From Escherichia phage JY01: 64,000 nt of DNA. The translations under genes were made by a program, and so were the position numbers. Under the pieces are notes generated by a model that did not search any database, had not been told where the DNA came from, and saw only the letters and a list, made by a program, of their open reading frames with translations. Location: the sequence record OR995200.1; one strand, given 5' to 3'. Positions 2,678 to 64,000 of the stretch are shown here, piece after piece (within the stretch, counting starts at the first letter, position 1; each line of letters begins with the position of its first letter).

Positions 2678-2921
2678 TATAAATTCTCTTTTAAATGAAA
2701 ATGCAGGACTTATTGGCATTGCCTGCGCAAGCCCTCAAGGGGAACGTAGGTTTTTGGATATTTAACGACCAGGATAACCATAAACCCGTCATCATTCACA
2801 TTCAAGAGGTACACCGTAAAACTGCCGGGGTCTTAAAACTATAATGATTCGCAAATCATTAATCAGACAGTTCGACGGCTCCTCGATTTAGCTCACACTA
2901 AGGCAGTGAATCTCCAATAAA

Positions 2922-3170
2922 TTACTTCAATGTTACCACAAAGTGACGAACTGCTTTTCGCGCAGCAGAAGCCAAAGGCTTAGCATATTTAAGTTCATCT
3001 TTTTCCTGAAGCTCAGCAGCTAATGCAGTTTGAGTAGGATTCAGATGTTTGAAATAACGCAGGATTTCAAGAGCTTCGGCTTCAACATCAATAGATGCGC
3101 CATAGTTTTCGTGACCATTATTCCATGCGTTTCGTTGCAGTTCAAGAGCGTGTTGTAATTGTTTAATCAT
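2922..3170 (-). CDS. rIII: rIII lysis-inhibition accessory protein
   Basis: 82 aa, same size as T4 RIII, located immediately downstream of gene 31 as in T4. Confidence 0.75.
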   Translation of the reverse strand: MIKQLQHALELQRNAWNNGHENYGASIDVEAEALEILRYFKHLNPTQTALAAELQEKDELKYAKPLASAARKAVRHFVVTLK

Positions 3171-3317
3171 TTAAAAATTCTCGTTAGAGATTAAAACTCG
3201 GTAGTCACGTTCTTCTGAATTTCATCTTCTTTCGACAGATCTCTCAGTTGTAGACTACCACATAGAATTGTTCGGTTAACTTATTATTCCGACACCCAAT
3301 TCATATTATTATTTATA

Positions 3318-3653
3318 TCACTTATAAAGACACGGAATAGCTTTATAGTGACAAGTAACGAATTTTTGTTTAATTTCTTTTGGCTGCTTAAGACCCAGAG
3401 CTACAAAAGGATGCGGAACATTTCGAATTTGACCAACTGGAAGAGAAGTCAAATCACCAACTTCGCAGAAACCTTCAGGAACATCAGGACCGACAGAGTG
3501 AACTACACACAGTTCAGGAACTTCACCTTGAACACGTTTACCGATAATAAGTCCTGATTCTGTAACTTCTTCATCACCGGCTTGTGCAGGTTCAGAAACT
3601 AAAATAACATATTCACCGACAGCACGAATTGGTAGCTGTTGTACTTCAGACAT
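3318..3653 (-). CDS. 31: gp31 co-chaperonin (GroES analogue for capsid protein folding)
   Basis: 111 aa; sequence and size as recalled for T4 gp31; synteny rIII-31-cd. Confidence 0.9.
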
Positions 3654-3709
3654 CGTTTTTCCTTTTTGTTAACAGATGAATTAATAATAACAAATAATTC
3701 TTAAAGCAT

Positions 3710-4018
3710 TTATTTACCAATAAATTGGAGCAAATGCTCAACTTTCATACCATTAACGGAAATCAATTTGTCAATAGAAAAACCTCGCCATGCACCAAGC
3801 TCAACATCAAATACCGGAATCATGTCAGTAGATTCTTTCCGAGTAGATTCAGTCAATTTGCCAGTTTGCATGGTTGGCATAAAGTCCGCGTCGCGAGTAC
3901 CTTTCATAACACGAATAGTACCGTCAGACTTTTCAAAAACTACGTTTGAAACACCCATGGACAATTTAGTTTTCAAAATTTCACGAATTGCTACTTTCTG
4001 CTCAGTTGTCAGTTTCAT
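3710..4018 (-). CDS. hypothetical protein (31.1 position)
   Basis: 102-aa ORF between 31 and cd. Confidence 0.5.
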   Translation of the reverse strand: MKLTTEQKVAIREILKTKLSMGVSNVVFEKSDGTIRVMKGTRDADFMPTMQTGKLTESTRKESTDMIPVFDVELGAWRGFSIDKLISVNGMKVEHLLQFIGK

Positions 4019-5171: not shown

Positions 5172-5404
5172 AGTACGCCATACACCCTTTGTGCTTCAAC
5201 TAATCCATCAAAATCCAATTTGAGATGTGTTATTTGGTCACCATCACCTGGATTCACAATTACTAATACCGAACGAGGAGTTTCGGTAATAACACGAACC
5301 GACGTTTCAGGAAATCGTTCAGAAACCTTATTTACCAATTCTTGAGCAAATAGTTTAACTTTTTCTTGGAATTCTTTAACAGTAATTGGTTTTTCGCTTA
5401 GCAT
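5168..5404 (-). CDS. hypothetical protein (cd.x)
   Basis: 78-aa ORF. Confidence 0.45.
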   Translation of the reverse strand: MLSEKPITVKEFQEKVKLFAQELVNKVSERFPETSVRVITETPRSVLVIVNPGDGDQITHLKLDFDGLVEAQRVYGVL

Positions 5405-6466: not shown

Positions 6467-7874
<1,408 letters not shown>

Positions 7875-7878
<4 letters not shown>

Positions 7879-10924: not shown

Positions 10925-12103
10925 TTAAAAGTATTTTTTAAAACTCATCATAACTTTATCATCAACATCATTATCAATCTGTGCAACAAGATAAGATGAC
11001 AGTTCTACTTCTTGTGGCGCGGATTGAACATTATCAGAATTAAGGTATTCACGAATCCAAGGATATGGATGTTTAACCGGAGCATCGGTAATTGGGCATG
11101 GAAGACCACACTGTTTCATACGAGATACAGTTAAATAATCAATAAAGCTCCACATGCTATTTGTATTTAATCCAGGAACATCGCCATCTTTAAATAAATG
11201 AACTGCCCAATCTTTTTCTTGGCGGTTAACTTCCATGAAAATATCAACTGCTTCTTGTTCACACTCTTGAGCAATTTTAACCCATTCATCACCATCAGTG
11301 CCAAGTTGGAGCTGACGAATAATATACTGGGTGCCTTTAAGGTGGAGTTGTTCGTCTCGAGCAATGAATTTCATAATCTTCGCATTACCTTCCATGATTT
11401 CCATATTTTTATGGAAGTTGAAAGTACATGCAAAGGATACATAAAAACGAATAGCTTCCAGGGCATTGATAACATGAAGGCAGAGATAAAGCGACTTCAT
11501 CAATGCATATTTACATTCTTCCACATGCATAAGACTATTTGAATATGCATCTAAATCATATTCATTTTCGGAAAAACATTTAAAAATTTCTTTTGCATTT
11601 TCCCATTCGCGCGTCTTAACCAGAACATCATCATAATAATGACCAATAGATTCAGCACGTTTCATGATAGCTTTATCTAATACAATCTCATCAAATACCT
11701 TTGACGGATCAGTATAAAGATTTCGCATAATATGAGTGTATGAACGACTGTGAATAGTTTCACTAAAAGTCCATGTAGCAACCCATGTATCAAGACTTGG
11801 GTCTGAAATTAACGACATAAGTACAGCAGACGGTGCACGACCCTGAATGCTATCTAGAAGTGATTGATACTTCAGGTTATTAGTAAAAATATCTTGCTGA
11901 TATTGAGGAAGCTTGTTAAATTGCGCAGCATCCATCATTAAGTTTACTTCTTCAGGACGCCAGAAAAATGATAATTGCTTTTCGGTTAAATCTTCAAAAA
12001 CTTTATGGCGTTGAATATCATAACGCGCAATACCAAGACCTGAACCAAAAAACATAGGTTCTTTTAAAACATCAACTGGATTTGTATTAAAAACTGTGCT
12101 CAT
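10925..12103 (-). CDS. nrdB: ribonucleotide reductase small subunit (intronless)
   Basis: 392-aa continuous ORF with no interruption; adjacent to nrdA. Confidence 0.9.
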   Translation of the reverse strand: MSTVFNTNPVDVLKEPMFFGSGLGIARYDIQRHKVFEDLTEKQLSFFWRPEEVNLMMDAAQFNKLPQYQQDIFTNNLKYQSLLDSIQGRAPSAVLMSLISDPSLDTWVATWTFSETIHSRSYTHIMRNLYTDPSKVFDEIVLDKAIMKRAESIGHYYDDVLVKTREWENAKEIFKCFSENEYDLDAYSNSLMHVEECKYALMKSLYLCLHVINALEAIRFYVSFACTFNFHKNMEIMEGNAKIMKFIARDEQLHLKGTQYIIRQLQLGTDGDEWVKIAQECEQEAVDIFMEVNRQEKDWAVHLFKDGDVPGLNTNSMWSFIDYLTVSRMKQCGLPCPITDAPVKHPYPWIREYLNSDNVQSAPQEVELSSYLVAQIDNDVDDKVMMSFKKYF

Positions 12104-12154
12104 AAATTTTCCACTTAGTTAATAGACAGTGACTCGTCCATGAGTCAAATTATA

Positions 12155-14973: not shown

Positions 14974-15834
14974 TTACACCGCCATCTTTCCTTTAATAGG
15001 AGGATGTGATTCATAGTTGTTAAGAACAAAATTATGAGGCTTTGCAAATTGACTCAACCAAAATACCTGCGATTCTGTGTCCCATTCATCAAATTCATCT
15101 GGAAATTTTAATTGTAATTCGCATAAATCCATAGGTTCACGACATAAAATTTCTTTACATTGTTCTACGTGATTCATATAGATATGAGTATTACCACCAG
15201 AAAATATCAAATCTCCCGGAATAAGATTACACATCTTAGCTACAATATGAACTAACGTAGCATATGATGCAATATTAAATGGAAGACCGAGGAAAACATC
15301 TACCGAACGTTGATACCATTGAAGGTCAAGGTATCCATTACGCACATTAAACTGATAGAACATATGACAAGGCGGTAATGCCATATATTTAAGTTCAGCT
15401 GGATTCCACGCAGAAACAATTTGACGCCTATCATTTGGCAGTTTTTTAATACGATCAATAACTTCTATAATTTGATCTACACCGCCAAAATCACGCCACT
15501 GTTTTCCATAAATTGGACCAAGTTCACCGCTATGGTATCCTAAATCTTTTGCTTGATTTTCGTAATTTTCATCCCAGACTGTTTTGCCTTGAATTAATGA
15601 ATCATGTTGAATTAATCGCAAATCATTGACATTTGTGCTTCCTGATAAAAACCATATTAGCTCAGCAATGCATGCATTCCAGGCGAGCTTTTTAGTTGTT
15701 ACTGCAGGAAAACCTTTGGTTAAATCCCAACGCAATTTAGTACCGAACAAAGCAATTGTTCCTGTGCCCGTTCGGTCATCGGTTTCATAGCCATTTTCAA
15801 AAATGTCTTTAATTAAATCTTGGTATTGTTTCAT
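14974..15834 (-). CDS. td: thymidylate synthase (intronless)
   Basis: 286-aa continuous ORF, same length as T4 TS; no group I intron or I-TevI ORF interrupts it. Confidence 0.95.
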
Positions 15835-15879: not shown

Positions 15880-16239
15880 TCAATACGGTTTAGCATCAAA
15901 TTTTCTCTCAATTTCAGGCGTGAAATATAATTCTTTACCGCGTTTGGAAAAGCGACCAATAATATGATAATTATTCTCATCAAACGTGATATTACCAATA
16001 TCCATAGCTTTCAACCAAATATCGATATTTCTATCCAGCTTTATGTCAAAATTCCAATACGGAGAACTATTACCGAAAATACTACAAGCGGATTCAGTGA
16101 AACAACTGCTATAAATCTTGTCTTTAGGAACTACTAATTGATAAACACCTTTAATAAACTGAGGACCTTGCCATTTTGGCTGTTTCGCGTCTTCTTCTAA
16201 TAGAATAGGGTAATAATTAAAATTCATATTTTCCGCCAC
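15880..16239 (-). CDS. hypothetical protein inserted between frd and td
   Basis: 119-aa ORF filling a gap where T4 frd and td abut; no nuclease motif recognised. Confidence 0.5.
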   Translation of the reverse strand: MAENMNFNYYPILLEEDAKQPKWQGPQFIKGVYQLVVPKDKIYSSCFTESACSIFGNSSPYWNFDIKLDRNIDIWLKAMDIGNITFDENNYHIIGRFSKRGKELYFTPEIERKFDAKPY

Positions 16240-16247
16240 GCGTTATT

Positions 16248-17070
<823 letters not shown>

Positions 17071-17086
<16 letters not shown>

Positions 17087-17430
17087 TGAAAGGGGCCAGA
17101 AGCAAATCCGCTATCTTTAATCATTTTAACTAAAGTTACCATTCCTCTGTTAACTGCTTGCGAGATTTCATCAAAAACTTCATCACTATCACCATAAAGA
17201 TCGCTAAAAAGTTCTAACACGTTCTTCTGAACTTTTAATTTACAGCCAACAAATTCGCCTACAGTAAATTCGTTTCCGCCAACTCCAGCGTAAAACGTAA
17301 TTACACCAGTTAATGGTCTTTCACTAGAACATAGGTCGTGTGATAAATTAATATAAGCCGTCCCGGGTGCAGTTTTAAGTTGGCAACGAATACTTACTCG
17401 AGCAATTCCAGCTACACGAATGTCAGACAT
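17071..17430 (-). CDS. hypothetical protein (frd.2 position)
   Basis: 119-aa ORF. Confidence 0.5.
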
Positions 17431-18619: not shown

Positions 18620-19528
18620 TTAAAGGTCATTCAAAAGGTCATCCAGGTCCGTGTCATCAGCACTAGATGAACTGCCAGAGCTTGAGCTCATAAAATCATC
18701 TTCAGTTTTTGTATTGAAGTCATCAACATTGAATGCATCCAAATCATCAGCAACTTTATCAGCTTTCTTAGCAGCAGTTGCAGCGGCACCGCCCATCACA
18801 GCAGTTCCCATAACTTGACCGAATTTAGTGCTCAGTTCTTCAAACGATTTGAATTTATCTTTAGAAGTCATTTCAGAAAGGTCAACCATTTGTTCGAACA
18901 GTTCTTTCTGGAAAGATTCATCGTCAATGTTTGGAATCGCAGATTGATTCAGGAATTTAGATTCATCGTAGTTACTAAATCCAGAAACCTGTTTAACTTT
19001 CAGTACAAAGTTAGCACCTTCCCACGGACAAGTTACATCAACTGGAGTTTCACCCATTTCAACATCAACTGCAATCATTGCATTGATTTTATCCCAGATT
19101 TTCTTACCGAAACGATATTTAAATACTTTACCTTCGTTTTCTGGAGCAGCTGGGTCTTTTACAACAAGAATGTTAGCCCAGTAAGAAGTTTTGCGTTTAA
19201 CAAGACTGTACTCTTTATTATCAGTGTTGTACAAATCATTTTTACTGATGTACTGACATACTGGACAAGAATCGTAATCACCGTGGGTAGATGAACACGT
19301 TTCAATATACCATTTGCCATTTTTCTTGAAACCATGATTTACAAGAATTGCGAATGGTGCTTGTTCATCATTTTTAGACGGAAGAAAACGAATTACTGCT
19401 TGACCGTTACCCGCATTGTCGAGTTTCAGTTTCCACTCGCCTTTATCTTCAGAAGAAAAACCACCTTTATTTCCAGCCAGTTTAGCCATTTGCGCGGCGA
19501 GTTCAGCAGTAGATTTACGTTTAAACAT
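18620..19528 (-). CDS. 32: gp32 single-stranded DNA-binding protein
   Basis: 302 aa; sequence as recalled for T4 gp32 including the acidic Ser-rich C-terminal tail. Confidence 0.97.
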
Positions 19529-19627: not shown

Positions 19628-20281
19628 TTAATACTTGCAAGATTTCACAGTTTCAATAAAAACTTTTTTAGCTTCCTGTGAATCGATATTTAAAATTTTT
19701 CTATAAGCTTTTAACTTTATAGAATAATTATTCCAGACTAAATTATCAGTCTGTTCATCATGTTTATCAATTATATTTAAAAACGAATCAAGCAAGATAA
19801 ACGTCTCAAACGAAATTATGTTCGATTGCAGAAGTTTAAAAATATAACTTGATTGAACTTTTGGATTATATTCAAAAATTTCTTTAAAAGCAGAAACTTC
19901 AACTTTTTTACTAAAATAATAAATGTTGCGAATATCTTCTTCAAACTTAAATTTAATTTGCTTTAAGCGTCCGATATATTCACGATAAAACACAAGTGCA
20001 TCAGCGTCAGAGATGTCACCAATCCAAGCATCTTGGTTAGCAACCAAATTACTTATAAAGATTAAAGCAAGTTCCTTTAATTTATATTTTTCTGATAACT
20101 TCTGAAAAAAATACTTATCCCTTCGCTTTTGATAAGCGGCATCAGACACCCGCATGCACCAATTATACTTAATAACATCATACTTTCCATTCATATGTTG
20201 TTTTATCATTAAGTATAATTTATAAACTGATTTACCATCAATGTATCTTTCACCACCAGCAGGCATGCGGAGTTTAATCAT
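19628..20281 (-). CDS. 59: gp59 helicase loader
   Basis: 217 aa, same size as T4 gp59; synteny 32-59-33 with no segG between 32 and 59. Confidence 0.85.
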   Translation of the reverse strand: MIKLRMPAGGERYIDGKSVYKLYLMIKQHMNGKYDVIKYNWCMRVSDAAYQKRRDKYFFQKLSEKYKLKELALIFISNLVANQDAWIGDISDADALVFYREYIGRLKQIKFKFEEDIRNIYYFSKKVEVSAFKEIFEYNPKVQSSYIFKLLQSNIISFETFILLDSFLNIIDKHDEQTDNLVWNNYSIKLKAYRKILNIDSQEAKKVFIETVKSCKY

Positions 20282-27614: not shown

Positions 27615-31737
<4,123 letters not shown>

Positions 31738-31767
31738 TTTGAATAAATATCCTTAAAAGGAGGGTCT

Positions 31768-35282: not shown

Positions 35283-35432
35283 TTACTGCATGACTGTGAT
35301 AACTGTCATGATAACACGTTGAATGCCGAACGCAAGAAGACCTCCTGCTACGGCTGGAACAACACCTAAACCCGCCAGTAAAATGCTACCGGATACTAAT
35401 GCAGCGCTTGTAATACCTATGAATGGACTCAT
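35283..35432 (-). CDS. small hydrophobic membrane peptide
   Basis: 49-codon ORF (MSPFIGITSAALVSGSILLAGLG...); ATGA overlap with gene 52 stop; below track cutoff. Confidence 0.4.
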   Translation of the reverse strand: MSPFIGITSAALVSGSILLAGLGVVPAVAGGLLAFGIQRVIMTVITVMQ

Positions 35433-36757
35433 TTGATTTCCTCTAAATCTTTAGTGTATTCGGTAACTACATTAGTAGTTTTCCAATATTCGTTTTCTTC
35501 TTTCTTAGCTTTAGCTTCTTCAGCAAGTTTCTTTGCTTCGTCGGAAGTCATATGAAAAATATTCATTCCAACTAGTTTATCAACATAAGAAGAATACATA
35601 TCGATTTTCGAAAGTTCTTCGGTCAGTTCTTTGCGAGTTTTACCCTGCACAACGATTTCACCTGAAATTACTTTCTTAATGAAATGTGCCTTGGCAAAGG
35701 CTAAACGAAAAGCTGACTCAGTTTCTTTGATTTTGTTATCAATTCGTTTTTTGACATAAGTTTTACGAACTTCAACAAAGTCTTTAATTAAATCGACTAC
35801 GTTATCGTAAACTTGTAGTTTTCCTTTCTCATTAATAACCGTAATATTCTGAGAACGGCGCTCAATTAACCCAAAGTCTTTCATAATTTTTGCATGGCGT
35901 TCTTCTTCATTATCGCTCAAAGAATATTCTTTACGGAATTTAACTTTAAAGCCAAAACCATGCTCACCACAAGCATCATCCCATGTAATGAAGCCTTTAT
36001 CTTCAAGTGGGTCTAAGATTTTACTCACATAAGTTTCACGATCATACTTATACGGAATCTCAGTGATATGCATTTGAGTTCGTGAAGTAAACTTATATGT
36101 TCCACGAATTTCATATTGCCCATCAATCTCAACGACTTCACCACGAAATTCTGGGAATTCTACCTTCGGTTTAGTTACTTTCTTTCCTTGAAGAGCTTGT
36201 AATACAGCTTTCTTAACAGAAGAAACGCTATGAGGAAGAATGTAAGTTGCATAACCAGTTGCAATACCGGAAACGCCATTAAGAAGAACAGTAGGAATAA
36301 TAGGCAAATAGAAAGCAGGCGGAATGTGTTCTTTATCTTGATGTACCGGAGCATATTCAGTATCTTTATATACGTTATAGAAATTTTTACTTACACGAGC
36401 AAAAATATAACGACTTGCTGCTGCTTTTTGGACGGTACGAGAACCAAAGTTTCCTTGACCATCTAACAAAGGAAAGTTATTATTCCAAGTGTTAGCCATC
36501 AAAGCCCCCGCATCTTGTGCAGAGTTTTCACCATGATGATATCCAAGGTCAGCTACACCACCTGCAATAGAAGCAAGTTTGTGAAACTTATCTTTATTTC
36601 CTCGTGCTAAATCAAGGGCTCGAGCAATAACAAATCGTTGGACTGGCTTAAATCCGTCAATCATATTTGGAATGGCACGATTTTCAACCGTGTACATAGC
36701 ATAAGCCAATGCTTCATTATCAATGATACTTTTTAAATCGCGATTATTCAGTTGCAT
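35429..36757 (-). CDS. 52: DNA topoisomerase II medium subunit (GyrA-like)
   Basis: 442 aa, same size as T4 gp52; synteny motA-52-ac-stp-ndd. Confidence 0.9.
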   Translation of the reverse strand: MQLNNRDLKSIIDNEALAYAMYTVENRAIPNMIDGFKPVQRFVIARALDLARGNKDKFHKLASIAGGVADLGYHHGENSAQDAGALMANTWNNNFPLLDGQGNFGSRTVQKAAASRYIFARVSKNFYNVYKDTEYAPVHQDKEHIPPAFYLPIIPTVLLNGVSGIATGYATYILPHSVSSVKKAVLQALQGKKVTKPKVEFPEFRGEVVEIDGQYEIRGTYKFTSRTQMHITEIPYKYDRETYVSKILDPLEDKGFITWDDACGEHGFGFKVKFRKEYSLSDNEEERHAKIMKDFGLIERRSQNITVINEKGKLQVYDNVVDLIKDFVEVRKTYVKKRIDNKIKETESAFRLAFAKAHFIKKVISGEIVVQGKTRKELTEELSKIDMYSSYVDKLVGMNIFHMTSDEAKKLAEEAKAKKEENEYWKTTNVVTEYTKDLEEIK

Positions 36758-38543: not shown

Positions 38544-38807
38544 TCATAGTTCAATCTCAGCAATTTTCATTTCATTACTATTAATAGCCGCTTTAAGACT
38601 ATCTGAAAGAATTACATCCCAGTGGTCATTCATATGACCATTAATTAAGCGTGTAATTTCTTCTGGAGTTGAAAAATAAGGCGTATCAGACTCCCAATGC
38701 GATAGTCCCAAGCGAGTATAAATCATACCTTCATCATCGCTAGAATATTCAACTGACACAAATTCATCAGTTATTTTATGTTTAGCGTAATAAAATTTAA
38801 ATTTCAT
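38544..38807 (-). CDS. hypothetical protein (ndd.x)
   Basis: 87 aa from MKFKFYYAKH; the track ORF's N-terminus is translated promoter leader. Confidence 0.5.
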   Translation of the reverse strand: MKFKFYYAKHKITDEFVSVEYSSDDEGMIYTRLGLSHWESDTPYFSTPEEITRLINGHMNDHWDVILSDSLKAAINSNEMKIAEIEL

Positions 38808-38832
38808 TTTCCGCTCCTCCGTAGTTGATAGT

Positions 38833-38865
38833 TGTATAGTACCACGGTCCTTGTGGTATGTAAAC
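38833..38865 (-). promoter_or_regulatory. T4-type early promoter module
   Basis: GTTTAC at 38860-38865, -10 TATAGTACC, conserved leader. Confidence 0.55.
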
Positions 38866-38881
38866 TGTTTTATGAAATTTT

Positions 38882-39439
38882 TTAAATAGAAAGATACCAT
38901 CCGTTGTAGTTGCTTTTTCTTACAACCTTACGAAGGTCTTCTCTATCACCGATGAATTTCGGAGTGTACTGGATGACACCTGGATGAATTTCTTTAGTGT
39001 TGAATATAATTATACAGTCAGCGACTTGATGATTTAGAATGGGCCCTAAATTTATTCCAGAACCATATGGATACTCTCCGCTGCATCCCGTTGTTACCGA
39101 AATCCAACGCGAGTCAGTTTGATGTGTTTTGACTTCTACACGAAGCCCGCAATATTTTGGATGCGCTAAAACATCCCATGCATACGTGTACGGATCATCG
39201 ACATTTTCTTGGCCTTTATTGACATATCCGCTTAGCCAATCTGCCACAAAAAACTCTGCGTACACCGCGATACGGCATCTTTCGATAACTTCTGCTTTAT
39301 CCTGGTTCGGGTTTTGTTTTAAAGAGTATCTTGCTGTATCAGCAATTTTGACCTTCATTTCACTAGTCAAGTCACTGTTCGATAGGGTAAATGTCGGAAT
39401 CTGAAATAGTCTCTGCAAACCCGGATTTGTTTTCTGCAT
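38882..39439 (-). CDS. denB: endonuclease IV (DenB-like)
   Basis: 185 aa, same size as T4 DenB, immediately upstream (in map order) of rIIB. Confidence 0.7.
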   Translation of the reverse strand: MQKTNPGLQRLFQIPTFTLSNSDLTSEMKVKIADTARYSLKQNPNQDKAEVIERCRIAVYAEFFVADWLSGYVNKGQENVDDPYTYAWDVLAHPKYCGLRVEVKTHQTDSRWISVTTGCSGEYPYGSGINLGPILNHQVADCIIIFNTKEIHPGVIQYTPKFIGDREDLRKVVRKSNYNGWYLSI

Positions 39440-40676: not shown

Positions 40677-42854
40677 TTAGGCCGCAAGGGCCTTCATAGT
40701 TTTAGCGATTTGGGAAACTTCATCATCACTCAAAGAGTTACGATAACCGATGAAGTCGGAAACAATACGGAATTTCTTGGTAAACTCAGCAACCATTTTA
40801 TCACTATTTTTTGAAGCATTACGTGATAATTCATCAAAGAGATTAGTTACTGTCCAGATATCATGACCGATGGTATCTTTTCCACCATTGAAATACACAC
40901 CGCGTAATGAACTAACCATATTACCAAGTCGTGTATATTCTTCAGAAACTTCATCTGTACTGAAGTACTTCATCATAAAATCTAGTTCAGGATACTTGAT
41001 AATTTTATCAATATATCGTTGAGCTGAACTTGAATAACCTACATACTTATCATAATCTACATCATCAAAAGCATCTACATATAAATCACGCAAAGCTTCA
41101 AAAATACATTGGCACTGACCGAGTTCTTTTACCTTTTTCTGTAAAAGCGGACGAATAACATAAAATTCATTAATGCCAATAAGATTAGCCATACGAATCA
41201 AAATATTCATAGATGGATGACAAAGTGATGTAGTACCATCCATAGAGAAAATATCAGAACGATGCATATACGCTACATAACCAGTAATTTCATCTGCTTC
41301 TGACGTAAGTGTAAATAGTTCCTCTTTTTCCCATCGTCCATCTTTAATTTCAAATTTAAATGCTGTAGCAGCTTTAGGACGAGGAGCTTTACTTTTAACT
41401 ACCTTTGGAATATAGCTTTTAACTAAAGCTTCAATTTCTGACAAATAATGAATGTTAACTTCATCACTTTCAAACATTGCCATAATATCAGGTAGTAAAT
41501 CAATCTGCGATTCTACTTCCGGATTAATAAACAGAAGACGCTCATTGTGATGAATATTTAAAGTGTTATTAAATTCACTATCATCTAACGCATGCGCTAA
41601 TCCACGGACAATATTAACACGATTTTTAATATTATCAATAACGATATTAATTTTTGTTGTATTAATACCAAACAGACGATAACTTGATGCAACGGCTGAA
41701 GTTTCATGGCTTTGCTTAATGCGTTTCAGTCGAGGGTCAAGATTTACTTCATACACAACTCCTGCATTGCATAACTTACTATCAGGTTCAAACATGCTCT
41801 GCATCTTTTTATATGACAGATTTTTAGTCGTGAATTTGACTGAATTACTAATCATATAATCTCGAGCAGAATACCCCATCTTCATCAATTCACGATATGT
41901 GTGACGAGGAGATGTAGATTCTTTAAATCGTTTTACATCTTCATTAAATGCTTTCTCACTGAGTTCTTTAACTCGTTCAATGATATTTTTACGAGTGCGA
42001 TCATCTAGTGAAAGAGCCTCGCGAGATGGAGCAATATCAAGTGAACCCATTGGAAACTTAATGTAATTCACTTCATTGCGAATGCTTAGCCAGTTACGGT
42101 CTCTAATAACACCATCGATAGGATAAACAATACCGCCATAGATAGCATATAATCCACCGCGATCAGGCCAGTATCTTTCTGGATTTACGCCATAATAATC
42201 ATCAAAATCCGGAAAATAATCAATTTCGCGGTCAAGACCATTAATGATAGCCAAATCTTTGAATGGTCGCATGATATAAGAAACTTCATAAGCAAAGTTT
42301 CTAAAGTCTTTTTCTTCAACTGGAACTACGATTTCAATACCAGTTTTATCATTTGGACCCATTTCTTTTACGAATGTAGGTTTAATTTGTGGACCATCGC
42401 CATCCATGTAAGCTACATAACCACGAATTTCACCTTTATGATACGAAGTAATACTAAACGTATCAGTATAACTAAACGGAGATTTAGAACCTAAACCAAA
42501 TCCGCCAATAAAGTCATTAGATTCAGCCTTAGATGAACTGAAATATGAATTATACAGCCCAGGAGAATTATCATCACCCTGAATATCAAAATCACTCATA
42601 CCCGGACCAAAATCTCGACAAACAAATCGTGGATCTAAACGTCCAGGAACTTGAATGATAAATTTTTCAGGATTTCCATTGAGAGCATGGGCATCAATCA
42701 TGTTGGTAATCAATTCACGAACAACTGCGCGAATTTTGTTTGTATACAAATCAGATGACAGAATTTTAAATACTTTAGGAGATGCTGCGATGCTAAATGC
42801 TTTTGATTTAGAACCATTGCCAAGAATTGTTTCTTTTTCAGTGGTGATAATCAT
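40677..42854 (-). CDS. rIIA: rIIA protein
   Basis: 725 aa, same as T4 rIIA; N-terminal ATPase-like region. Confidence 0.9.
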
Positions 42855-42864
42855 AATTTCCTCA

Positions 42865-43068
42865 TTAATTCATATTACGCTTAATAACTTCAGCAACTTC
42901 TAGTAGTTCATCTTTAGTTGCAGTGTCGGATTGAATTTTATCTCTAATATCTTTAAAGCGGTTTTTAAATTCTTCGGCTTCTCCCATATCGAAAAAGCGT
43001 TGAATGATTCTATATTCTCGATGAACTGCTTTATCAAAAAGTTCTAAATTTACTTTATATGATTTCAT
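42865..43068 (-). CDS. hypothetical protein (rIIA.1 position)
   Basis: 67-aa ORF downstream of an early promoter module at 43093-43123. Confidence 0.5.
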
Positions 43069-43092: not shown

Positions 43093-43123
43093 AATTATAC
43101 CACATCCTTGTGGTAAAGTAAAC
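43093..43123 (-). promoter_or_regulatory. T4-type early promoter module
   Basis: GTTTAC at 43118-43123 overlapping the gene 39 stop. Confidence 0.5.
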
Positions 43124-44943
43124 TACTGGCTCATCCATTCTTTACGAAGGTCAGCATTATCTCCCATGAGCATTTCAAAAAGATCTTTCCAGTTCTCAGG
43201 AAGTTTAACAACATCATATACTGGATTTTGAATCATCTCACGATATTCAGATTTTTCCAAAGAGCCAAGTCCCTTAATATAACGGATGCTATGTTTAGGT
43301 AGAGCATCTTTAGCACTCTCATATTCAGCGACTGTATAAAACCATTCTTGTTTTTTACCGACCTGGGCGATGATTACAGGAGTTTTGACAAAGCGAATTC
43401 GTCCTTGCTCAAACAATTCTGGCCAATTACTAAAAAATCCAAGAAGAGAAGGATAAATGCTTCCTAGACCATCATGGTCAGCATCAGTCATAATAGCAAT
43501 ATTATGATAATTCAAGTTTTCAGCTTTTTCACCAAGAACTAATCCAGTGATTGCGCAAATATCAAATAGTTCTTTGTTTTTAAGCATATCAGCATATGAC
43601 ATACCCCAACTGTTGAGAACTTTACCGCGCAATGGATAACCACCATGAAGTTCTTTATCACGAACATCAATAAGATATCCGATAGCAGAATCACCCTCAG
43701 TCAAGAAAAGAGTAGTATCAGCATCTTTACCGCAAAGATTCGCTTTGATATGTTTATGAACCTTTGCCTTAGAAGCCTTTTTAGCTGCTTTAGTTTCAGC
43801 TGCTTTTTCTGCTGCCAATTTACGAGCTAGTGCAGCTTCAATAATTGGCATCAGAATTGCTTCATTATTTAGAATAGCGCGTGAAATCTTTTTAGCGTCA
43901 AGTTGAATATGACTACGGATTTCACCAAATGGAGAAGTCAAACGCTCTTTAGTTTGAGAATCAAATCGCATGTTTTTCATATCACGAACAAACATAACGA
44001 TAGTCAAACATTCTTTAACACGTGCTTTAGTTACATCAATTTTGAACTTACGTTTGATTTGTGGAATAAGGTCTTCACAAATATCATCCATAACACAGTC
44101 AATGTGATGACCACCATTCTTAGTATGAATGTTATTGACGTATGTTAATTGACGAAAACCATCCGGTGAACGACCAACCGCAATAGAACAATTTTCTTGT
44201 TCTTGAACAATAGCATGCTCATCATATTGGCGTGCATATTTCTTAAAATTACCCTGAACCTTTTTACCGTTAAAGGTAAATTGAATATCAGGATAAACTA
44301 CTGCAAGTGTCTGGAGACGATCTAGTGTAATGTCAAGATAAACCTGAGATAGCTCATTAGTTTCAAATGACATAAAATCAGGAATGAAAGTAACACGAGT
44401 TCCTTTCCATTTTCCAGGAATATCTTCCCATGATTTATTTTCCATGCCATTTGAACAACGAACTACAATATTATTTTGACCGTCGCCAGTTTCACCGACA
44501 AACATAACAGAAAAAATGTTAGTTAAACTAGAGCCAACACCGTTCATACCGCCAGTGACGCGTTCTTTATCATCGCCGAAGTTACCACCTGCTTTTGGAA
44601 TAGTCCAGGCGGCAACAGGACCAGGAATTTCTTCACCAGTAGGTGTTTTAACCATCGCTTGTGGAATACCACGACCGTTATCTTCAACTGTTACTTGATT
44701 GTTTTTAATAGTAACGTTAATTTTATTTGCGAATTTAAACTTAGTACGAATACCTTCATCTACTGAGTTATCGATAATTTCATCAATAAGCTTAACAAGA
44801 CCAGGTACATACTGAACACTTTCCCATTTACCAAACAGAAAGCGCTCATGCATTTCATTAGCAGAAGAACCAATGTACATGCCGCTACGCTTTTTGATAT
44901 GTTCAATATCGCTCAGAATTTTAATTTCATTCTTAATCATCAC
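43123..44943 (-). CDS. 39: DNA topoisomerase II large subunit (GyrB-like), single fused ORF covering T4 genes 39 and 60
   Basis: 606-aa continuous ORF; N-terminal GHKL ATPase region and C-terminal Toprim region (LTEGDSAIGYL); no translational-bypass gap and no mobA. Confidence 0.9.
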   Translation of the reverse strand: MMIKNEIKILSDIEHIKKRSGMYIGSSANEMHERFLFGKWESVQYVPGLVKLIDEIIDNSVDEGIRTKFKFANKINVTIKNNQVTVEDNGRGIPQAMVKTPTGEEIPGPVAAWTIPKAGGNFGDDKERVTGGMNGVGSSLTNIFSVMFVGETGDGQNNIVVRCSNGMENKSWEDIPGKWKGTRVTFIPDFMSFETNELSQVYLDITLDRLQTLAVVYPDIQFTFNGKKVQGNFKKYARQYDEHAIVQEQENCSIAVGRSPDGFRQLTYVNNIHTKNGGHHIDCVMDDICEDLIPQIKRKFKIDVTKARVKECLTIVMFVRDMKNMRFDSQTKERLTSPFGEIRSHIQLDAKKISRAILNNEAILMPIIEAALARKLAAEKAAETKAAKKASKAKVHKHIKANLCGKDADTTLFLTEGDSAIGYLIDVRDKELHGGYPLRGKVLNSWGMSYADMLKNKELFDICAITGLVLGEKAENLNYHNIAIMTDADHDGLGSIYPSLLGFFSNWPELFEQGRIRFVKTPVIIAQVGKKQEWFYTVAEYESAKDALPKHSIRYIKGLGSLEKSEYREMIQNPVYDVVKLPENWKDLFEMLMGDNADLRKEWMSQ

Positions 44944-45009: not shown

Positions 45010-45282
45010 TTATTTAAAACGGATAGTCGAATCCTTGAAGAATAGACCAGAACATACGGTTCCTTCTACTTTCTGCCCGGTAGGTCCAATAGCGCGAAAT
45101 CCAGTATGTTGGAAATCATTTTCAGAGCAACCGAACCAATTGTATCCAGTGATTTCAATATTAGTAAAACCGCTTGATGACAAAATTTTGGTTGCATTAT
45201 CAGCATCAGTACATCCTGCTAAAGACACTGCTAATACTAATGCTGCGATAGAACGATTAATATATTTCATAATTTCACTCAA
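45010..45282 (-). CDS. predicted lipoprotein
   Basis: 90 aa; signal peptide with lipobox LAGC. Confidence 0.5.
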   Translation of the reverse strand: MSEIMKYINRSIAALVLAVSLAGCTDADNATKILSSSGFTNIEITGYNWFGCSENDFQHTGFRAIGPTGQKVEGTVCSGLFFKDSTIRFK

Positions 45283-45646
45283 ATTTAATGGCTTGAAGAA
45301 GACTAATAATTCTCAAGCGACTTCTTTCATCTTTAACTGTAAAAGAAAGAGGGTCACCAGATTTCATAGTGATGATGCATCCAAAATCAAAATCTTCTGT
45401 AACTTCTTCGAAGAAGTCAAATTCTTCATCATAAATTAGAACATTACTCTGAAAGCTGTGAAGAATTTTTCCATCATTTCCAGATGCTGTACTAATCATT
45501 GTAACATTATGACCTTTCATATCTTCAACGATAAATTCGCTTGTAGATATTACTGCATTAATAGAACCGTTCCTATGAATAGCAGAAAATAGATATTTCT
45601 TTTCTTCACCTTCGCGAACACGATATTTCTTACCGATTTTAAACAT
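45275..45646 (-). CDS. hypothetical protein
   Basis: 123-aa ORF. Confidence 0.45.
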   Translation of the reverse strand: MFKIGKKYRVREGEEKKYLFSAIHRNGSINAVISTSEFIVEDMKGHNVTMISTASGNDGKILHSFQSNVLIYDEEFDFFEEVTEDFDFGCIITMKSGDPLSFTVKDERSRLRIISLLQAIKFE

Positions 45647-46852: not shown

Positions 46853-47272
46853 TTATGCTAAAGCTGCTTCGCACCATTTTTTAATTTGGAATTCAGGAAC
46901 TACCATGAACTGGCCTGCAAAAACAATATTGTAGAGCTTGACACCATCTTCTACCCAACGGTCCGAAATAAAACCAGCGACTTGATTCGTTGTCCATGGA
47001 GTTCCATCTGTTGCCGCCGCAATTGTGAATTTATGGTCTTTTACAACTAAAACTGAAGAACAAAGTTTCCATTTAAATGCGCTTTCTTCTGGCTCAATGA
47101 ACTGACTTGAGACATAACCAATGTTACCATCAGCGTCACGAACTTTAACCTCGTTACGACCAAAAACTGGATCACTTACAGAAAGAACTTCAACCAGCTT
47201 TCCTGCAACTTTAGAACGAGAAGCAACGGATACATATACGTAATCACCAGTAGAGAGATTTACAATATTCAT
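46853..47272 (-). CDS. paralog family member A (shared C-terminal domain)
   Basis: 139 aa; N-terminal ASRSKVAGKLVEV and C-terminal GFISDRWVEDGVKLYNIVFAGQF shared with the adjacent ORF. Confidence 0.55.
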   Translation of the reverse strand: MNIVNLSTGDYVYVSVASRSKVAGKLVEVLSVSDPVFGRNEVKVRDADGNIGYVSSQFIEPEESAFKWKLCSSVLVVKDHKFTIAAATDGTPWTTNQVAGFISDRWVEDGVKLYNIVFAGQFMVVPEFQIKKWCEAALA

Positions 47273-47281
47273 AATAATTCC

Positions 47282-47755
47282 TTAAGCTTTACGAGGAGAA
47301 GCATAACGAGTGATTTCAGATTCTTCAACAACCCGGAAGTCACCTAAGAATACGATATTGTAGAGCTTTTCACCATCTTCAACCCATTGGTCTGTGATGA
47401 AGCCACACATCCTATCAGTTTTACTTGGACCAGCGAAATCATCAATATAATCGAATTCTTCATCAGTTACAAATTCAACGCCTTTACACAACGCCCATTT
47501 AAATTGTGCATTAGACTCAGTGGATTCAACTTCTTCAACAGAAGCAAAATGAGAGCTAACACGAGTTTCCAGAAATTTAGGACTTACGTAAGCGTACTGA
47601 GTTTCAGTTTTTCCAGAACTAGGAATGATTCGAACTTTAACTTCTATAACACGACCAGTACCATTAGTACGAAGTCCTACCACTTCAACTAGACGACCTG
47701 CAGCTTTAGAACGAGATGCAGACGATACACGCTTAATTTCACCGATAGTAATCAT
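47282..47755 (-). CDS. paralog family member B
   Basis: 157 aa; ASRSKAAGRLVEV and GFITDQWVEDGEKLYNIVFLGDF motifs. Confidence 0.55.
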   Translation of the reverse strand: MITIGEIKRVSSASRSKAAGRLVEVVGLRTNGTGRVIEVKVRIIPSSGKTETQYAYVSPKFLETRVSSHFASVEEVESTESNAQFKWALCKGVEFVTDEEFDYIDDFAGPSKTDRMCGFITDQWVEDGEKLYNIVFLGDFRVVEESEITRYASPRKA

Positions 47756-47827: not shown

Positions 47828-48322
47828 TTAATTAAGGATATTAATTACTGCACTACGTGGAACTACACTAAAATCACCTGCATGAACAACGTTCAGAAGT
47901 TCAACACCGTCTTCAATCCACTGATCAGTTACCCATCCACTCACTGGACCTGCGAACGGACGTCGAATTGAAACAGCTTTACACAACAAATCAGTAGGCT
48001 CAATAGGCTTAACCAGAGTACCGTACATACAAGCGATATCCATATCAATACAGATGTCTTTAACGGGTTCTACTTCTTCAATCAACAGTTCAAAGTCGGT
48101 GCTTGGAAGGGCGGTAGTAGAAATTGTACCGTATGAATTTTTAATTTCTAAGAATAACCAAGAGCCTTCAACTTGTTTGATGAAGTTAACAATAGTGAAA
48201 CTATTACCTTGAGTGGCGCCTAAAATTTCACAAAACTTTTCATAAGCTCGCACTGAAGCACCATACCAGTTGATTTGCTTTTCGTCTTTCAGGATGTAAG
48301 TAGCTGTAGTACTGATATTCAT
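47828..48322 (-). CDS. paralog family member C (C-terminal domain only)
   Basis: 164 aa; C-terminal GWVTDQWIEDGVELLNVVHAGDF matches A and B. Confidence 0.55.
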   Translation of the reverse strand: MNISTTATYILKDEKQINWYGASVRAYEKFCEILGATQGNSFTIVNFIKQVEGSWLFLEIKNSYGTISTTALPSTDFELLIEEVEPVKDICIDMDIACMYGTLVKPIEPTDLLCKAVSIRRPFAGPVSGWVTDQWIEDGVELLNVVHAGDFSVVPRSAVINILN

Positions 48323-56170: not shown

Positions 56171-56202
56171 CTATTATACCATACTCATTTTGATATGTAA
56201 AC
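56171..56202 (-). promoter_or_regulatory. T4-type early promoter module
   Basis: GTTTAC at 56197-56202 with a TATAAT-type -10. Confidence 0.5.
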
Positions 56203-56212
56203 CGGTAAAATG

Positions 56213-56236
56213 AAAAAAGGAACCCCGAAGGATTCC
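56213..56236 (-). terminator. intrinsic terminator after soc
   Basis: Hairpin GGAAUCC-UUCG-GGGUUCC followed by UUUUUU. Confidence 0.6.
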
Positions 56237-56244
56237 TTAAATTA

Positions 56245-56481
56245 TTAACCACCTATTTCTGTAGGTGTAAACATCGCAGCATTCTTAGTTTTCCAGTCAG
56301 CTGCATCAGAAACTACAGTAGAATATGCCGCCTTTTCAGAAGGAAAGGTCTGATAATGAGAATCTGCAATACGATGCTCGTTAGAATAGATTTCAAATGG
56401 AACAGAAACTTCCATACCTTTAACTTCTTTGCCTTCACCTGCTGGATGAGTAAAGGTCTTGATGTTAACGAAACCACCCAT
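56245..56481 (-). CDS. soc: small outer capsid protein Soc (divergent from T4)
   Basis: 78 aa; conserved Soc motifs VNIKTF and HYQTFPSEKAAYSTV; hairpin plus U-tract terminator downstream. Confidence 0.8.
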   Translation of the reverse strand: MGGFVNIKTFTHPAGEGKEVKGMEVSVPFEIYSNEHRIADSHYQTFPSEKAAYSTVVSDAADWKTKNAAMFTPTEIGG

Positions 56482-56662
56482 AATAAACTCCTTTATTGTT
56501 TAATTACAGGTGTATTTATAACTTATAATTTAGCGGCTTTCCAGAGTTGTTCAATAATCTCTTGGTCTATTTCTTTAGTTATTTCATTACGTAATAAAGC
56601 AGTAAGGGCTTTCGCCCTTTTCTTATTCAACTTTTTGAGTTGACGTTTATTTAAACGAGACA

Positions 56663-57181
56663 TTAATAACCTCGGTCTTGACGTGCGAAATTTTCAGCAT
56701 TTTTCAGGTAATAAAGTTTAAAGATTTCTTCTGCTGTAAGACCAAGACCTTGGAACATATTCAGAACGAAATGGAGAATATCAATCATTTCAAATTTAAT
56801 TTCCAGTTGGTCTTGTGGAGACAAATCAGTAATCAGAGTTTCACGACGTTCACCATGCTGCGACTTCCAAGGTTTCCATACAGCAGATGCATCTTTTTCA
56901 CCATTGCTCATACCACCAAGAGAAGTCAGAAGTTCGCGGAATTCATCATCAATATAATCTTTCTGATTACGCATCCAATCAACAACTTCACCTGCAGTAG
57001 CCAAATCATCAGGATGACGGTTATATTCAGGTTTATCTTTAGCTAAACGAACCTGTAAAGATTTCTGCATATCAAGCATAACTTGCAGCGGGTCTTTTTC
57101 ATCACCGAGAATATCCCAATATTCATTTTGAGCTTTATCAGCGCCTTCAATCAGTTGTGAACATTCGTTAAAGTAAGCCAT
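56663..57181 (-). CDS. 56: dCTP pyrophosphatase (MazG-like)
   Basis: 172 aa from MAYFNECSQ; track ORF has a 31-codon hydrophobic extension that is probably not translated. Confidence 0.8.
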   Translation of the reverse strand: MAYFNECSQLIEGADKAQNEYWDILGDEKDPLQVMLDMQKSLQVRLAKDKPEYNRHPDDLATAGEVVDWMRNQKDYIDDEFRELLTSLGGMSNGEKDASAVWKPWKSQHGERRETLITDLSPQDQLEIKFEMIDILHFVLNMFQGLGLTAEEIFKLYYLKNAENFARQDRGY

Positions 57182-57252
57182 TATTTTTCCTTTCAATTCA
57201 TGGGTTAGTAGATTAATTATACAATAAATATATAAAGCAATAAGGAGGACAT

Positions 57253-57453
57253 ATGGTACAAAAATTAATGGCACTTGTTAATGCCATCAAAGGTAATAAG
57301 AAACGTATAGCTTTTACTATTTCTGCTATGGTAGGAATTTTACTCTGGAACTTTATTTTATCACCAATTGCAATTGCACATGGTGTTAATATTCCAGTAG
57401 TTACTCTTGATACATTTGTAGATTTAGCATTTGCTTTAGTTGGGTTAATTTAA
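57253..57453 (+). CDS. small two-helix membrane protein (plus strand, late-type promoter)
   Basis: 66 aa with two hydrophobic segments; strong SD AAGGAGGA 5 nt upstream; TATAAA-type late-promoter-like sequence upstream; convergent with gene 61. Confidence 0.45.
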   Translation: MVQKLMALVNAIKGNKKRIAFTISAMVGILLWNFILSPIAIAHGVNIPVVTLDTFVDLAFALVGLI

Positions 57454-58478
57454 ATCTTAGCATATTTAGATAACCGCATTTTAGCCATCAACCCCTGGGC
57501 AATATTATTTTTCATATATTCCATAATTTGTTCAGGGGTTGCACCTTCCTTTCTAATCATATCATTAACATCTTTTGATTTCCAGGGAGATTTATCCCAA
57601 AACATAACCCTTTCTCCTGCATCAACTAATTTAGTCATTCGCTTAATAGTGTCAGGATGACGAGGTTCATTATCTAAGACCCACACACGCCTATCTTTAA
57701 ATGGAACAACTTCTAGGTCTAATTGACCACCCGTAATAGCTATACCATTTTCAATAAAAAGTGAATCTATAGGTCCTTCTAAAACATATACATCACCATC
57801 TTTAACTCGTTCGACTCCATATATTTTTGTTGCCTCAGGATAAGCTTTGATGGTGATATATTTTTGAGGAGCATCTTTCTTTAATGCACGCCCTTGAAAC
57901 GACTCGGCTTTTCCATTAGCATTATAAATTGGAATAACAAGACGAGGCTCAGAAATTTCCTTTTTGTATGTTCCCGGTGCTATGCTATTAACTAATTTAG
58001 GCCATTCGGTTGTAAACCAAAGATATTTCCATTTATCCTTTGGAATACAACGAGCTTTTACATATTTTATAATTGGATGGTCTTCCACCAGTTTATCTAA
58101 TCTAACACATGACTGAAGAGATTTAATTATTTTCTTCTCAGGATGTTTAGGAAGTTCTTTAGGTTTTTCTACTGGACGACTTTTACCTTTTTCTTTTCTT
58201 ATTTCAAAGATATACTCACGATATAAATCAGGTTCAAACTCCTTTAAATATATTCCGATTGGTGCATGATAGTTACAGTTATAACAATGAATATTTCCTT
58301 CATTATTATCACCGTAATACCATCCACGGGCTTTATTCTGGTCGGTTTTTGAATCTCCACAAACAGGGCATCTAAACCGTAATTTAAAAGTTGAACTATT
58401 ATTTACTTGTGTGAATTTAGGTAAATGAGCTAATGCACGATACGCAAACTCATTATCAATCCAAGGTATTGATGACAT
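57450..58478 (-). CDS. 61: DNA primase
   Basis: 342 aa, same as T4 gp61; N-terminal zinc ribbon CPVCGD...CYNC. Confidence 0.95.
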   Translation of the reverse strand: MSSIPWIDNEFAYRALAHLPKFTQVNNSSTFKLRFRCPVCGDSKTDQNKARGWYYGDNNEGNIHCYNCNYHAPIGIYLKEFEPDLYREYIFEIRKEKGKSRPVEKPKELPKHPEKKIIKSLQSCVRLDKLVEDHPIIKYVKARCIPKDKWKYLWFTTEWPKLVNSIAPGTYKKEISEPRLVIPIYNANGKAESFQGRALKKDAPQKYITIKAYPEATKIYGVERVKDGDVYVLEGPIDSLFIENGIAITGGQLDLEVVPFKDRRVWVLDNEPRHPDTIKRMTKLVDAGERVMFWDKSPWKSKDVNDMIRKEGATPEQIMEYMKNNIAQGLMAKMRLSKYAKI

Positions 58479-58480
58479 TT

Positions 58481-58645
58481 TTACTCTTCTTTTTCTTTAG
58501 ATTCCTCTTTTTTCTTTTTAGGAATCTGTTCAGGACCTTTATTTACTACAGCGCCCGACGTTGTTCCAGTAGAGATATTTTCAGGATTACCACCTGAATC
58601 TCCAGCTACCATATCTTCTTTAATAAATTCTTTATATGTTTTCAT
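58481..58645 (-). CDS. small hypothetical protein
   Basis: 54-codon ORF MKTYKEFIKED...; below track cutoff; start lies in the 49-bp repeat. Confidence 0.3.
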   Translation of the reverse strand: MKTYKEFIKEDMVAGDSGGNPENISTGTTSGAVVNKGPEQIPKKKKEESKEKEE

Positions 58646-58646
58646 A

Positions 58647-59003
58647 TTAACCTCTATTCATAAAAGCATTAAAAATTTGGTCATCAATAGATGGAATAGC
58701 AACCTTTTCGGCATCATTTAGCAAATCATTAATTTCATCAGATAGCATAACACATGTGCCTTTATTTCCTGTAATTGTTACTGCGCAATTACGAACGTTT
58801 TCTTTATCAAATTTTAGGTTAATATTTTCGTAGTGAAAATCCTTTAATGCCGAATATATCTTTAAAATGAAATTGTCTTTTACTACAATAAACCCAACCT
58901 CACTATTAAAACGTGGTTCATGGAAACTGTAATAAACCTTTTCATCTATAAAATCGTATGAAATTTTTTCCATTTTTAAATATGAAAATTCAGAACTATA
59001 CAT
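58647..59003 (-). CDS. hypothetical protein (61.x)
   Basis: 118 aa; C-terminus IDDQIFNAFMNRG shared with the next ORF. Confidence 0.5.
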   Translation of the reverse strand: MYSSEFSYLKMEKISYDFIDEKVYYSFHEPRFNSEVGFIVVKDNFILKIYSALKDFHYENINLKFDKENVRNCAVTITGNKGTCVMLSDEINDLLNDAEKVAIPSIDDQIFNAFMNRG

Positions 59004-59004
59004 A

Positions 59005-59646
59005 TTAACCTTTATTCATAAAAGCATTAAAAATTTGATCGTCAATAGAAACTTTTACTTTAGGCTGTTCTTCAAACGGTAATTCATATCCACATATTAC
59101 AATTTTGTGATCAATATCAAAATACACAGAAGAAATATGATTAATGATGTTTTCAGTAAAGTCTAAATCAACATCAATATCTTTTTGACCACAGCCCAAA
59201 GGATAAATAATGCGAGTAATTCGATTATCTTTAACAAATATTCCACCGACATACTCTGTGCTGCGTTTAAAGTTTACACGTTTCCTAAATGAAAAATATT
59301 CAGGCTCTCTATGAGCTCGGCTCATAGGACACAACGAGTAACTAGAATAAGAGATGTCAAATCCTACACCTTCAATATGAGCCAACGCGTCATGATTAAA
59401 CCAATTATAATCGTACGCCAAATCCATTATATTGTAATATGTGAAAGGCACCGGATTAACATCATGCGTTGTACCTTTAAAATCTGCCCAGGCAACGATT
59501 TCGTTATCTTTAACAATTACAAAAATTGTGCCAATAAGATATCCACGGTTATTTTCATCAGGCGTTATATTATAACATTGTGCACCAGGAAATTTACCGT
59601 ATTTAAACGGTGGATTTTTGTGCATATAATAAATCATATTATTCAC
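59005..59646 (-). CDS. hypothetical protein (61.x)
   Basis: 213 aa; C-terminus IDDQIFNAFMNKG. Confidence 0.5.
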   Translation of the reverse strand: MNNMIYYMHKNPPFKYGKFPGAQCYNITPDENNRGYLIGTIFVIVKDNEIVAWADFKGTTHDVNPVPFTYYNIMDLAYDYNWFNHDALAHIEGVGFDISYSSYSLCPMSRAHREPEYFSFRKRVNFKRSTEYVGGIFVKDNRITRIIYPLGCGQKDIDVDLDFTENIINHISSVYFDIDHKIVICGYELPFEEQPKVKVSIDDQIFNAFMNKG

Positions 59647-63448: not shown

Positions 63449-63525
63449 TCATTTTTTCCATAGGCATCATTATATTTTCCTCACTGGTTAAAGATAGAGT
63501 AATTATAACACAATAAATTTAGGCA

Positions 63526-64000
63526 TTAATCAACTGCTATTGGATGAATAGCATTAAACTTATGAAACGCTTCTGATTTTTCTTTGCGCGAAACACACAT
63601 GCGAAGAACCTTTAATGGCTCGTCTTCTTCACCCAACGATTTTCTCTTTTCAATATTCGATGTTTTCCAACGAGCTTGCTCTGGAAACTCTCTATTGATT
63701 TGCTCAAGCGCTCTATTATGTTTAGAATTACTACGAATTGAACTACATCCGCCAGGAGCTTGTGCTTTTCCAGATACAACCAGATATTTGAACAGGGCCA
63801 AATGCGGATAACCTTGACTAATTAAATTGAGAAATGCATACATATCTTCGCATAAATCAATTTTTCCATACCCAATTTGTTCTGTCGTAAGTTTTCCGAG
63901 GTCATACCATGTATTCGTGAATCCATATGAATTTTCACGATAATTACCCCAAGATGAAGTAATTTTAAAAATAGGTAGACGAGCATGGCCATGATAATAC
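63526..64000 (-). CDS. gene at the T4 beta-glucosyltransferase locus (beta-gt or beta-alpha-gt), partial; N-terminus beyond window end
   Basis: Frame is open from the window end to the stop at 63526 (at least 157 codons); identity inferred from position next to uvsX only. Confidence 0.35.
   Translation of the reverse strand, partial: YYHGHARLPIFKITSSWGNYRENSYGFTNTWYDLGKLTTEQIGYGKIDLCEDMYAFLNLISQGYPHLALFKYLVVSGKAQAPGGCSSIRSNSKHNRALEQINREFPEQARWKTSNIEKRKSLGEEDEPLKVLRMCVSRKEKSEAFHKFNAIHPIAVD

Follow-up and report, generated by a model that had tools for sequence, protein, structure and literature searches.

An unsplit gene 39 of the T2/T6 type for the topoisomerase large subunit in Escherichia phage JY01

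The type II topoisomerase of the T-even phages relaxes DNA without supercoiling it. In T4 this enzyme is built from three subunits, and ribosomes translating gene 60 must bypass a 50-nt gap after Gly46. The T2 and T6 enzymes have two subunits, and published work on T6 gp39 includes structures solved by cryo-EM and its activity together with gp52 in vitro (PMC11461880). Manning & Atkins (bioRxiv 10.1101/2022.08.31.505936) describe a MobA element of 1097-1106 nt that replaces a 64-nt parental segment, and they report that the element-borne HomR is 67-81% identical to the parental sequence, that the T4 clade carries an extra 9 nt of HomR past the gap, and that the deleted parental segment holds the nick site/recognition region of MobA in T2. 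In the literature MobA is treated as a mobile element for which T2 is an experimentally shown recipient, and T4 with its 15 homing endonucleases is considered an oddity among the T-even phages (PMC2988022). With gp39 of T2 and T6, gene '60plus39' of RB14 and the mobile MobA cassette all described, the existence of an unsplit gene 39 is already established in the literature.

Here, we compare these systems with the gene 39 locus in a 64,000-nt stretch of Escherichia phage JY01 (OR995200.1), referred to as the window. The window is a segment of a Tequatrovirus (T4-like) genome and is colinear with T4 from 127.9 kb through the map origin and onward. The gene 39 locus matches 552 phage records, the best being SA21RB and PP01 at 97.8-97.9% DNA identity, and a 25-kb stretch is closest to CAM-21 (97.6%). 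The local gene order is rIIA (40677-42854), rIIA.1 (42865-43068), 39, 39.1, an ORF similar to RB32ORF005c, 39.2, goF and cef; T6 and RB14 have the same order from rIIA downstream to cef upstream of gene 39.

The original prediction held that the large subunit is encoded here by a single uninterrupted gene, and this is borne out by the reading frame. The ORF listing contains one open frame at 43123..44943 on the minus strand, with 606 codons counted from a GTG, and upon translation the sole stop in this frame is the terminal one. Given the base composition of the window (35.4% G+C), the probability of 606 open codons arising by chance is ~4e-21. The predicted continuity of the ORF stands and its predicted length of 606 aa does not: the latter results from the ORF rule, which mechanically takes the GTG located one codon upstream of an ATG. 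A GAGGA Shine-Dalgarno sequence at 44951-44947 lies 6 nt from the ATG (44940-44938) and only 3 nt from the GTG, and in T4 gp39, as in the 605-aa genes annotated in T2, T6 and RB14, the corresponding ATG is taken as the start. Based on the Shine-Dalgarno spacing and the annotated starts of the homologues, gene 39 is 43123..44940 on the minus strand, starts with ATG and codes for 605 aa plus the stop; it should be annotated accordingly, and the GTG at 44943-44941 is probably not an initiation codon. The gene and the sequence preceding it comprise the following features:

45007-44996, minus strand: GGCC-UUCG-GGCC hairpin just past the stop codon of 39.1, read directly, a putative signal
44992-44986, minus strand: AGCTTTA, similar to a MotA box, upstream of gene 39, read by eye, putative
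44973-44968, minus strand: TATAAT, after a spacer of 12 nt from AGCTTTA, read by eye, putative
43522..44940, minus strand: part equivalent to T4 gp39 1-473, with the GHKL ATPase, the transducer and the first half of Toprim including EGDSA
43459..43522, minus strand: 64-nt 'parental' segment, from the third base of codon 473 to codon 494, replaced by the ~1.1-kb MobA element in T4-type phages
43123..43458, minus strand: part equivalent to T4 gp60 50-160 plus stop, with the second half of Toprim and the C-terminal associated domain

The sequence similar to a MotA box together with TATAAT may constitute a MotA-dependent middle promoter for gene 39. A generic sigma-70 scan for promoters and terminators around gene 39 found no promoter directly upstream of the gene, and it returned fewer promoter-like sites in this region than in shuffled sequence. 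The miss is expected because a middle promoter, if MotA-dependent, would have no -35 hexamer.

The protein has the domains of a complete large subunit on a single chain, i.e. the GHKL ATPase, the transducer and a complete Toprim domain, with all catalytic motifs in frame. Pfam matches are to HATPase_c (E=2e-9), DNA_gyraseB (E=1.5e-13, aa 251-385) and TOPRIM_C (aa 520-605). The Pfam Toprim model itself remained below threshold on this protein, and the Toprim domain is established by aligning the whole protein with T6 gp39 and with Topo II/ParE structures. Among the PHROGs, phrog_543 ('DNA topoisomerase II large subunit') matches aa 1-605 with E=4e-295. A motif scan and the search for the partner subunit gave the following features:

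aa 54-61: N-box, EIIDNSVD
aa 87-93: G1, DNGRGIP (DxGxG)
aa 130-136: G2, GGMNGVG (GxxGxG)
aa 329-331: QTK, lysine of the transducer loop
aa 415-419: EGDSA, catalytic Glu of Toprim
aa 486-491 (43468..43485, minus strand): DADHDG, the DxDxD metal-binding motif of Toprim
35429..36757, minus strand: gene 52, 442 aa, GyrA/ParC-like (Pfam DNA_topoisoIV, E=9e-77, aa 27-429)

The architecture of GHKL ATPase, transducer and Toprim is shared with GyrB/ParE and with the N-terminal half of eukaryotic Topo II, chains of which match the gene 39 protein with E about 1e-59. NCBIfam models for gyrB and parE match from end to end with E-values down to 7e-69, but score 233 bits against cut-offs of at least 740; being far below these curated cut-offs, the protein is not an equivalog of gyrB or parE. 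As judged from its sequence, we assign the gene 39 protein to the B-type subunits of the type IIA topoisomerases (GyrB/ParE/T-even gp39). Gene 52 is intact, syntenic with T4 gene 52 and located 6.4 kb from gene 39. Thus, gp39 and gp52 would form a two-subunit (A2B2) ATP-dependent type IIA topoisomerase of the T2/T6 type, and that this enzyme would be active is suggested by the near-identity of its large subunit to T6 gp39.

T6 gp39 (YP_010067157; 605 aa) is identical to the gene 39 protein at 602 of 605 positions, with substitutions at aa 172 (D/T), 526 (Q/H) and 586 (D/E), and is the chain represented in PDB entries 8YLU, 8YO1, 8YO5, 8YO7, 8YOD and 8YON (the 602/605 match being to 8ylu_C). 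T2 gp39 (BBC14618; 605 aa) is identical at 603 of 605 positions, with substitutions at aa 70 (F/L) and 586 (D/E), and the two genes differ at 73 nucleotides, mostly synonymously. The comparison with T2 and T6 gave the same domain order, the same partnership with gp52 and the same neighbours, and no structural or organisational difference was found. RB14 '60plus39' (YP_002854339) likewise codes for 605 aa, is unsplit and has the same junction; in RB14 and ~450 other Tequatrovirus records the junction is 95-100% identical and differs only by point polymorphisms.

The enzyme, its genomic position and its partner gp52 are the same as in T4; the differences lie in how the large subunit is encoded. 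In blastp comparisons, aa 1-473 of the gene 39 protein align to T4 gp39 1-473 with 466/473 identities (99%), and aa 472-605 align to T4 gp60 27-160 with 127/134 identities (95%). At the DNA level, homology to T4 ends at window position 43523 (T4 3911) and resumes at 43458 (T4 2793) with 98.6% identity, leaving 64 nt in the window versus 1117 nt in T4 (3910..2794). The 1117 nt of T4 contain the gp39 tail, the mobA pseudogene/60.1, the gp60 head and the 50-nt bypass gap, and all of these except the gap lie in a block of ~1 kb, missing from the window, that follows the Ala473 codon. In T4 the gap comes after GAT GGA (the GGA coding for Gly46 of gp60) and before TTA GGT; at this site the window reads GAT GGT CTA GGA AGC without interruption, the equivalent position being after the Gly491 codon (GGT, 43470-43468) and before the Leu492 codon (CTA, 43467-43465). 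In a MAFFT alignment the window, T2, T6 and RB14 have a clean gap of 50 columns relative to T4 and HY01. Accordingly, the 43-aa C-terminal extension of T4 gp39 (aa 474-516) and the N-terminal extension of ~26-30 aa of T4 gp60 with its recoded HomR have no counterpart in the window protein. Codon-level comparison and alignment revealed no in-frame stop, frameshift or gap at the 39/60 junction or at the bypass site, in agreement with the original prediction, for which realignment with T4 gp39 and gp60 and with the T2, T6 and RB homologues had been proposed.

The comparison also locates the T4 split. The prediction that one ORF carries both the ATPase and the Toprim parts is correct, but it implied that T4 is divided between the two; the T4 split after aa 473 lies inside Toprim, between EGDSA on the gp39 side and DADHDG on the gp60 side, and the literature agrees with this placement. 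Apart from the junction, T4 NC_000866 differs at codons 326-328 of gene 39, where it reads MR LIR QTK versus MR FDS QTK in the window (43965-43957), T2 and T6. In the DNA, two indels (-1/+1) that compensate each other within 10 nt, immediately ahead of the QTK loop, account for this difference (CGATTGATTCGTCAA vs CGATTTGATTCTCAA). Either the T4 reference contains a legacy sequencing error at this site or the double frameshift is real.

The absence of the mobA insertion and of the bypass element, as predicted, is upheld by the DNA comparison and the MAFFT alignment and also by direct searches for their remnants, which found none either at the junction or anywhere else in the window. A search with 28 nt of the bypass gap sequence, allowing up to 3 mismatches, gave no match in the window, and tblastn of the T4 MobA fragment and gp60.1 against the window gave nothing below E=1. 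Gene 39 of the window also lacks the arrangement in which a take-off GGA and a stop are followed by a 50-nt coding gap with a matching landing codon (GGA). The 45 nt between the two insertions of T4 (HomR) differ between the window and T4 at 12 positions (73% identity), and the flanks of this stretch are 95-98.6% identical to T4. The window has the parental variant at all 12 diagnostic HomR positions and in the 9 nt after the gap, and over 43541-43445 its identity to the naive phage T2 is 100%. The 73% identity in HomR and the T2-identical segment fit the published account of the cassette and show that the window gene 39 represents the T2/T6-type ('parental', unsplit) allele without the MobA/gene-60 bypass cassette. 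Moreover, the 300-nt flanks, in which the window and T2 differ at 17 positions, resemble the T4 haplotype no more than those of T2 do, and we therefore see no sign of a past invasion.

Combining these data, we suggest that gene 39 of the window is the ordinary T-even allele in its 'parental', uninvaded form, a reading to which we assign a probability of about 0.96. In T4 and a minority of its relatives, a cassette of ~1.1 kb replaces 64 nt of gene 39, and the inserted DNA cuts the gene into 39 and 60 and adds the 50-nt translational bypass gap. According to this model, the phage studied here would either have escaped invasion by the MobA homing-endonuclease cassette altogether or have regained the parental sequence through recombination with a naive phage. 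As its 64-nt target segment does not differ from that of T2, the phage is predicted to be open to homing of the cassette when it infects a cell together with a phage whose MobA is active.

Alternatively, an ancestor could have carried the MobA/bypass cassette and the gene could have been re-fused later by deletion of the element in a 'hit and run' history. Such histories exist in Myoviridae: Manning & Atkins report lineages in which the endonuclease, the bypass or both were progressively lost, as well as one clade whose ORFs became fused secondarily. However, re-fused or degraded lineages retain the cassette-derived C- and N-terminal extensions, of which the window has none, and the window contains only parental variants and no cassette-type polymorphisms, including over the stretch in which it is identical to T2. 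Only homologous recombination with a naive phage would be traceless, and its outcome coincides with the parental allele as set out above. We consider secondary loss by deletion very improbable.

The uninterrupted junction could also be an artefact of assembly or annotation, the true genome being split and the insert having been collapsed or lost. Against this stand the same junction in 449 independent phage records at 95-100% identity, including T2, T6 and RB14, the expression and solved structure of the T6 protein, and a base composition that runs smoothly across the junction; the chance that the parental arrangement is an artefact appears close to negligible.

The number of records with each arrangement reverses the perspective from which the locus was first described. 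Using a 132-nt query that covers both T4 insertion points and requiring at least 80% coverage, an intact junction was found in 449 phage records. The T4 cassette occurs in 43 records and is nearly complete in 41, and among them are many T4 laboratory strains and RefSeq/GenBank duplicates; T4, HY01, RB55 and others are the phages that bear it. A count of 520 records obtained with a 2.5-kb query at a coverage of at least 80% was rejected, as it may include T4-type records with joined pieces. The unsplit gene 39 is the normal state, present in about 90% of sequenced relatives, and the T4 split is the exception. The original prediction, which took T4 as its reference, was right that the gene is unsplit, but it is the unsplit gene that is parental and usual (449 versus 41-43 records). 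Therefore, the feature is the absence of a peculiarity of T4 and not a special trait of this phage.

The same pattern was predicted for td and nrdB, both expected to be uninterrupted, and for segG, expected to be absent between genes 32 and 59, and all three expectations hold:

10925-12103: nrdB, 392 aa in a single ORF; the T4 intron of ~600 nt is absent, with the break at 11427/11430
14974-15834: td, 286 aa in a single ORF matching the whole thymidylate synthase profile; the T4 intron of ~1017 nt is absent at 15285/15286
18620-19528 and 19628-20281: genes 32 and 59, respectively, 99 nt apart; segG is absent

The window also lacks mobE and nrdB.1 between nrdA and nrdB (12104-12154), segF between soc and 56 (56482-56662), where a 46-aa ORF at 56523-56663 occupies the site, and segA downstream of uvsX (63449-64000). 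In total, all seven T4 homing endonucleases that map to these 64 kb are missing (I-TevI, I-TevIII, MobE, SegG, MobA, SegF and SegA). In tblastn searches of the window with the seven proteins there was no match below E=0.3, and Pfam searches with 20 window-specific or unassigned ORFs identified no HNH, GIY-YIG or LAGLIDADG domains.

The absence of all seven genes despite a MobA target that is intact and identical to that of T2 raises the idea that the lineage is actively protected from invasion by homing elements, for example through an ecology in which co-infection is rare or through an exclusion function. Since it is T4 that published work regards as the outlier, the simple reading of a typical naive T-even phage is far more likely; active protection we regard as highly unlikely. 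With respect to the MobA/bypass cassette and six further homing elements of T4 the genome is 'naive', and the phage could serve as a recipient or control in studies of homing and bypass, for which T2, T6 and hundreds of sequenced relatives are already available.

The window differs from T4 at several other sites. Small ORFs on the minus strand at 5398-5925, 7558-7878, 15880-16239, 16829-17086, 17071-17430 and 38544-38900 are without counterpart at the syntenic T4 positions, and among the ORFs of this kind is a 119-aa ORF inserted in the td/frd interval. The only Pfam match in this group is that of 17071-17430 to DUF7247, and none of the ORFs is homing-endonuclease-like. Next to gene 39, a 123-aa ORF at 45275-45646 (minus strand) lies between 39.1 and 39.2; it is absent in T4 and is present in T6 and RB14 as 'RB32ORF005c'. 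This ORF matches phrog_622, a family of unknown function, and weakly (E=1e-6) resembles the N-terminal part of a goF family.

The window is a mosaic, with 100% identity to ECML-363 over 56200-58500 and 97.6-97.9% identity to CAM-21, SA21RB and PP01 over 20000-45300. The dam gene of T4 is missing at 57275-57449, between gene 56 (56663-~57181) and gene 61 (57450-58478), and tblastn of T4 Dam against the whole window gave no match. ECML-363 has the same 56/61 arrangement without dam at 100% identity, and wV7 and many others have it at about 97%; its presence in these phages indicates that it is a common Tequatrovirus variant. For the region of the distal tail fibres at 27781-31743 (3' part of gene 37 plus gene 38), blastn gave no match to T4; this region may code for a different type of adhesin, possibly with a T2-like gp38.

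Two loci contain related genes side by side. Three tandem paralogues of the MotB family are located on the minus strand at 46853-47272, 47282-47755 and 47828-48322 (Pfam motB, E=6e-20, 6e-41 and 2e-8, respectively), in a region with only 69-79% DNA identity to T4 motB, motB.1 and motB.2. Gene 61.2 at 59005-59646 (minus strand; 213 aa) aligns end to end with the Pfam family AdfA (anti-DarT factor A; E=5e-136). The adjoining 118-aa ORF at 58647-59003 (minus strand) matches only the C-terminal half of AdfA (E=2e-8), which suggests that it is a partial tandem duplicate or a diverged paralogue of 61.2.
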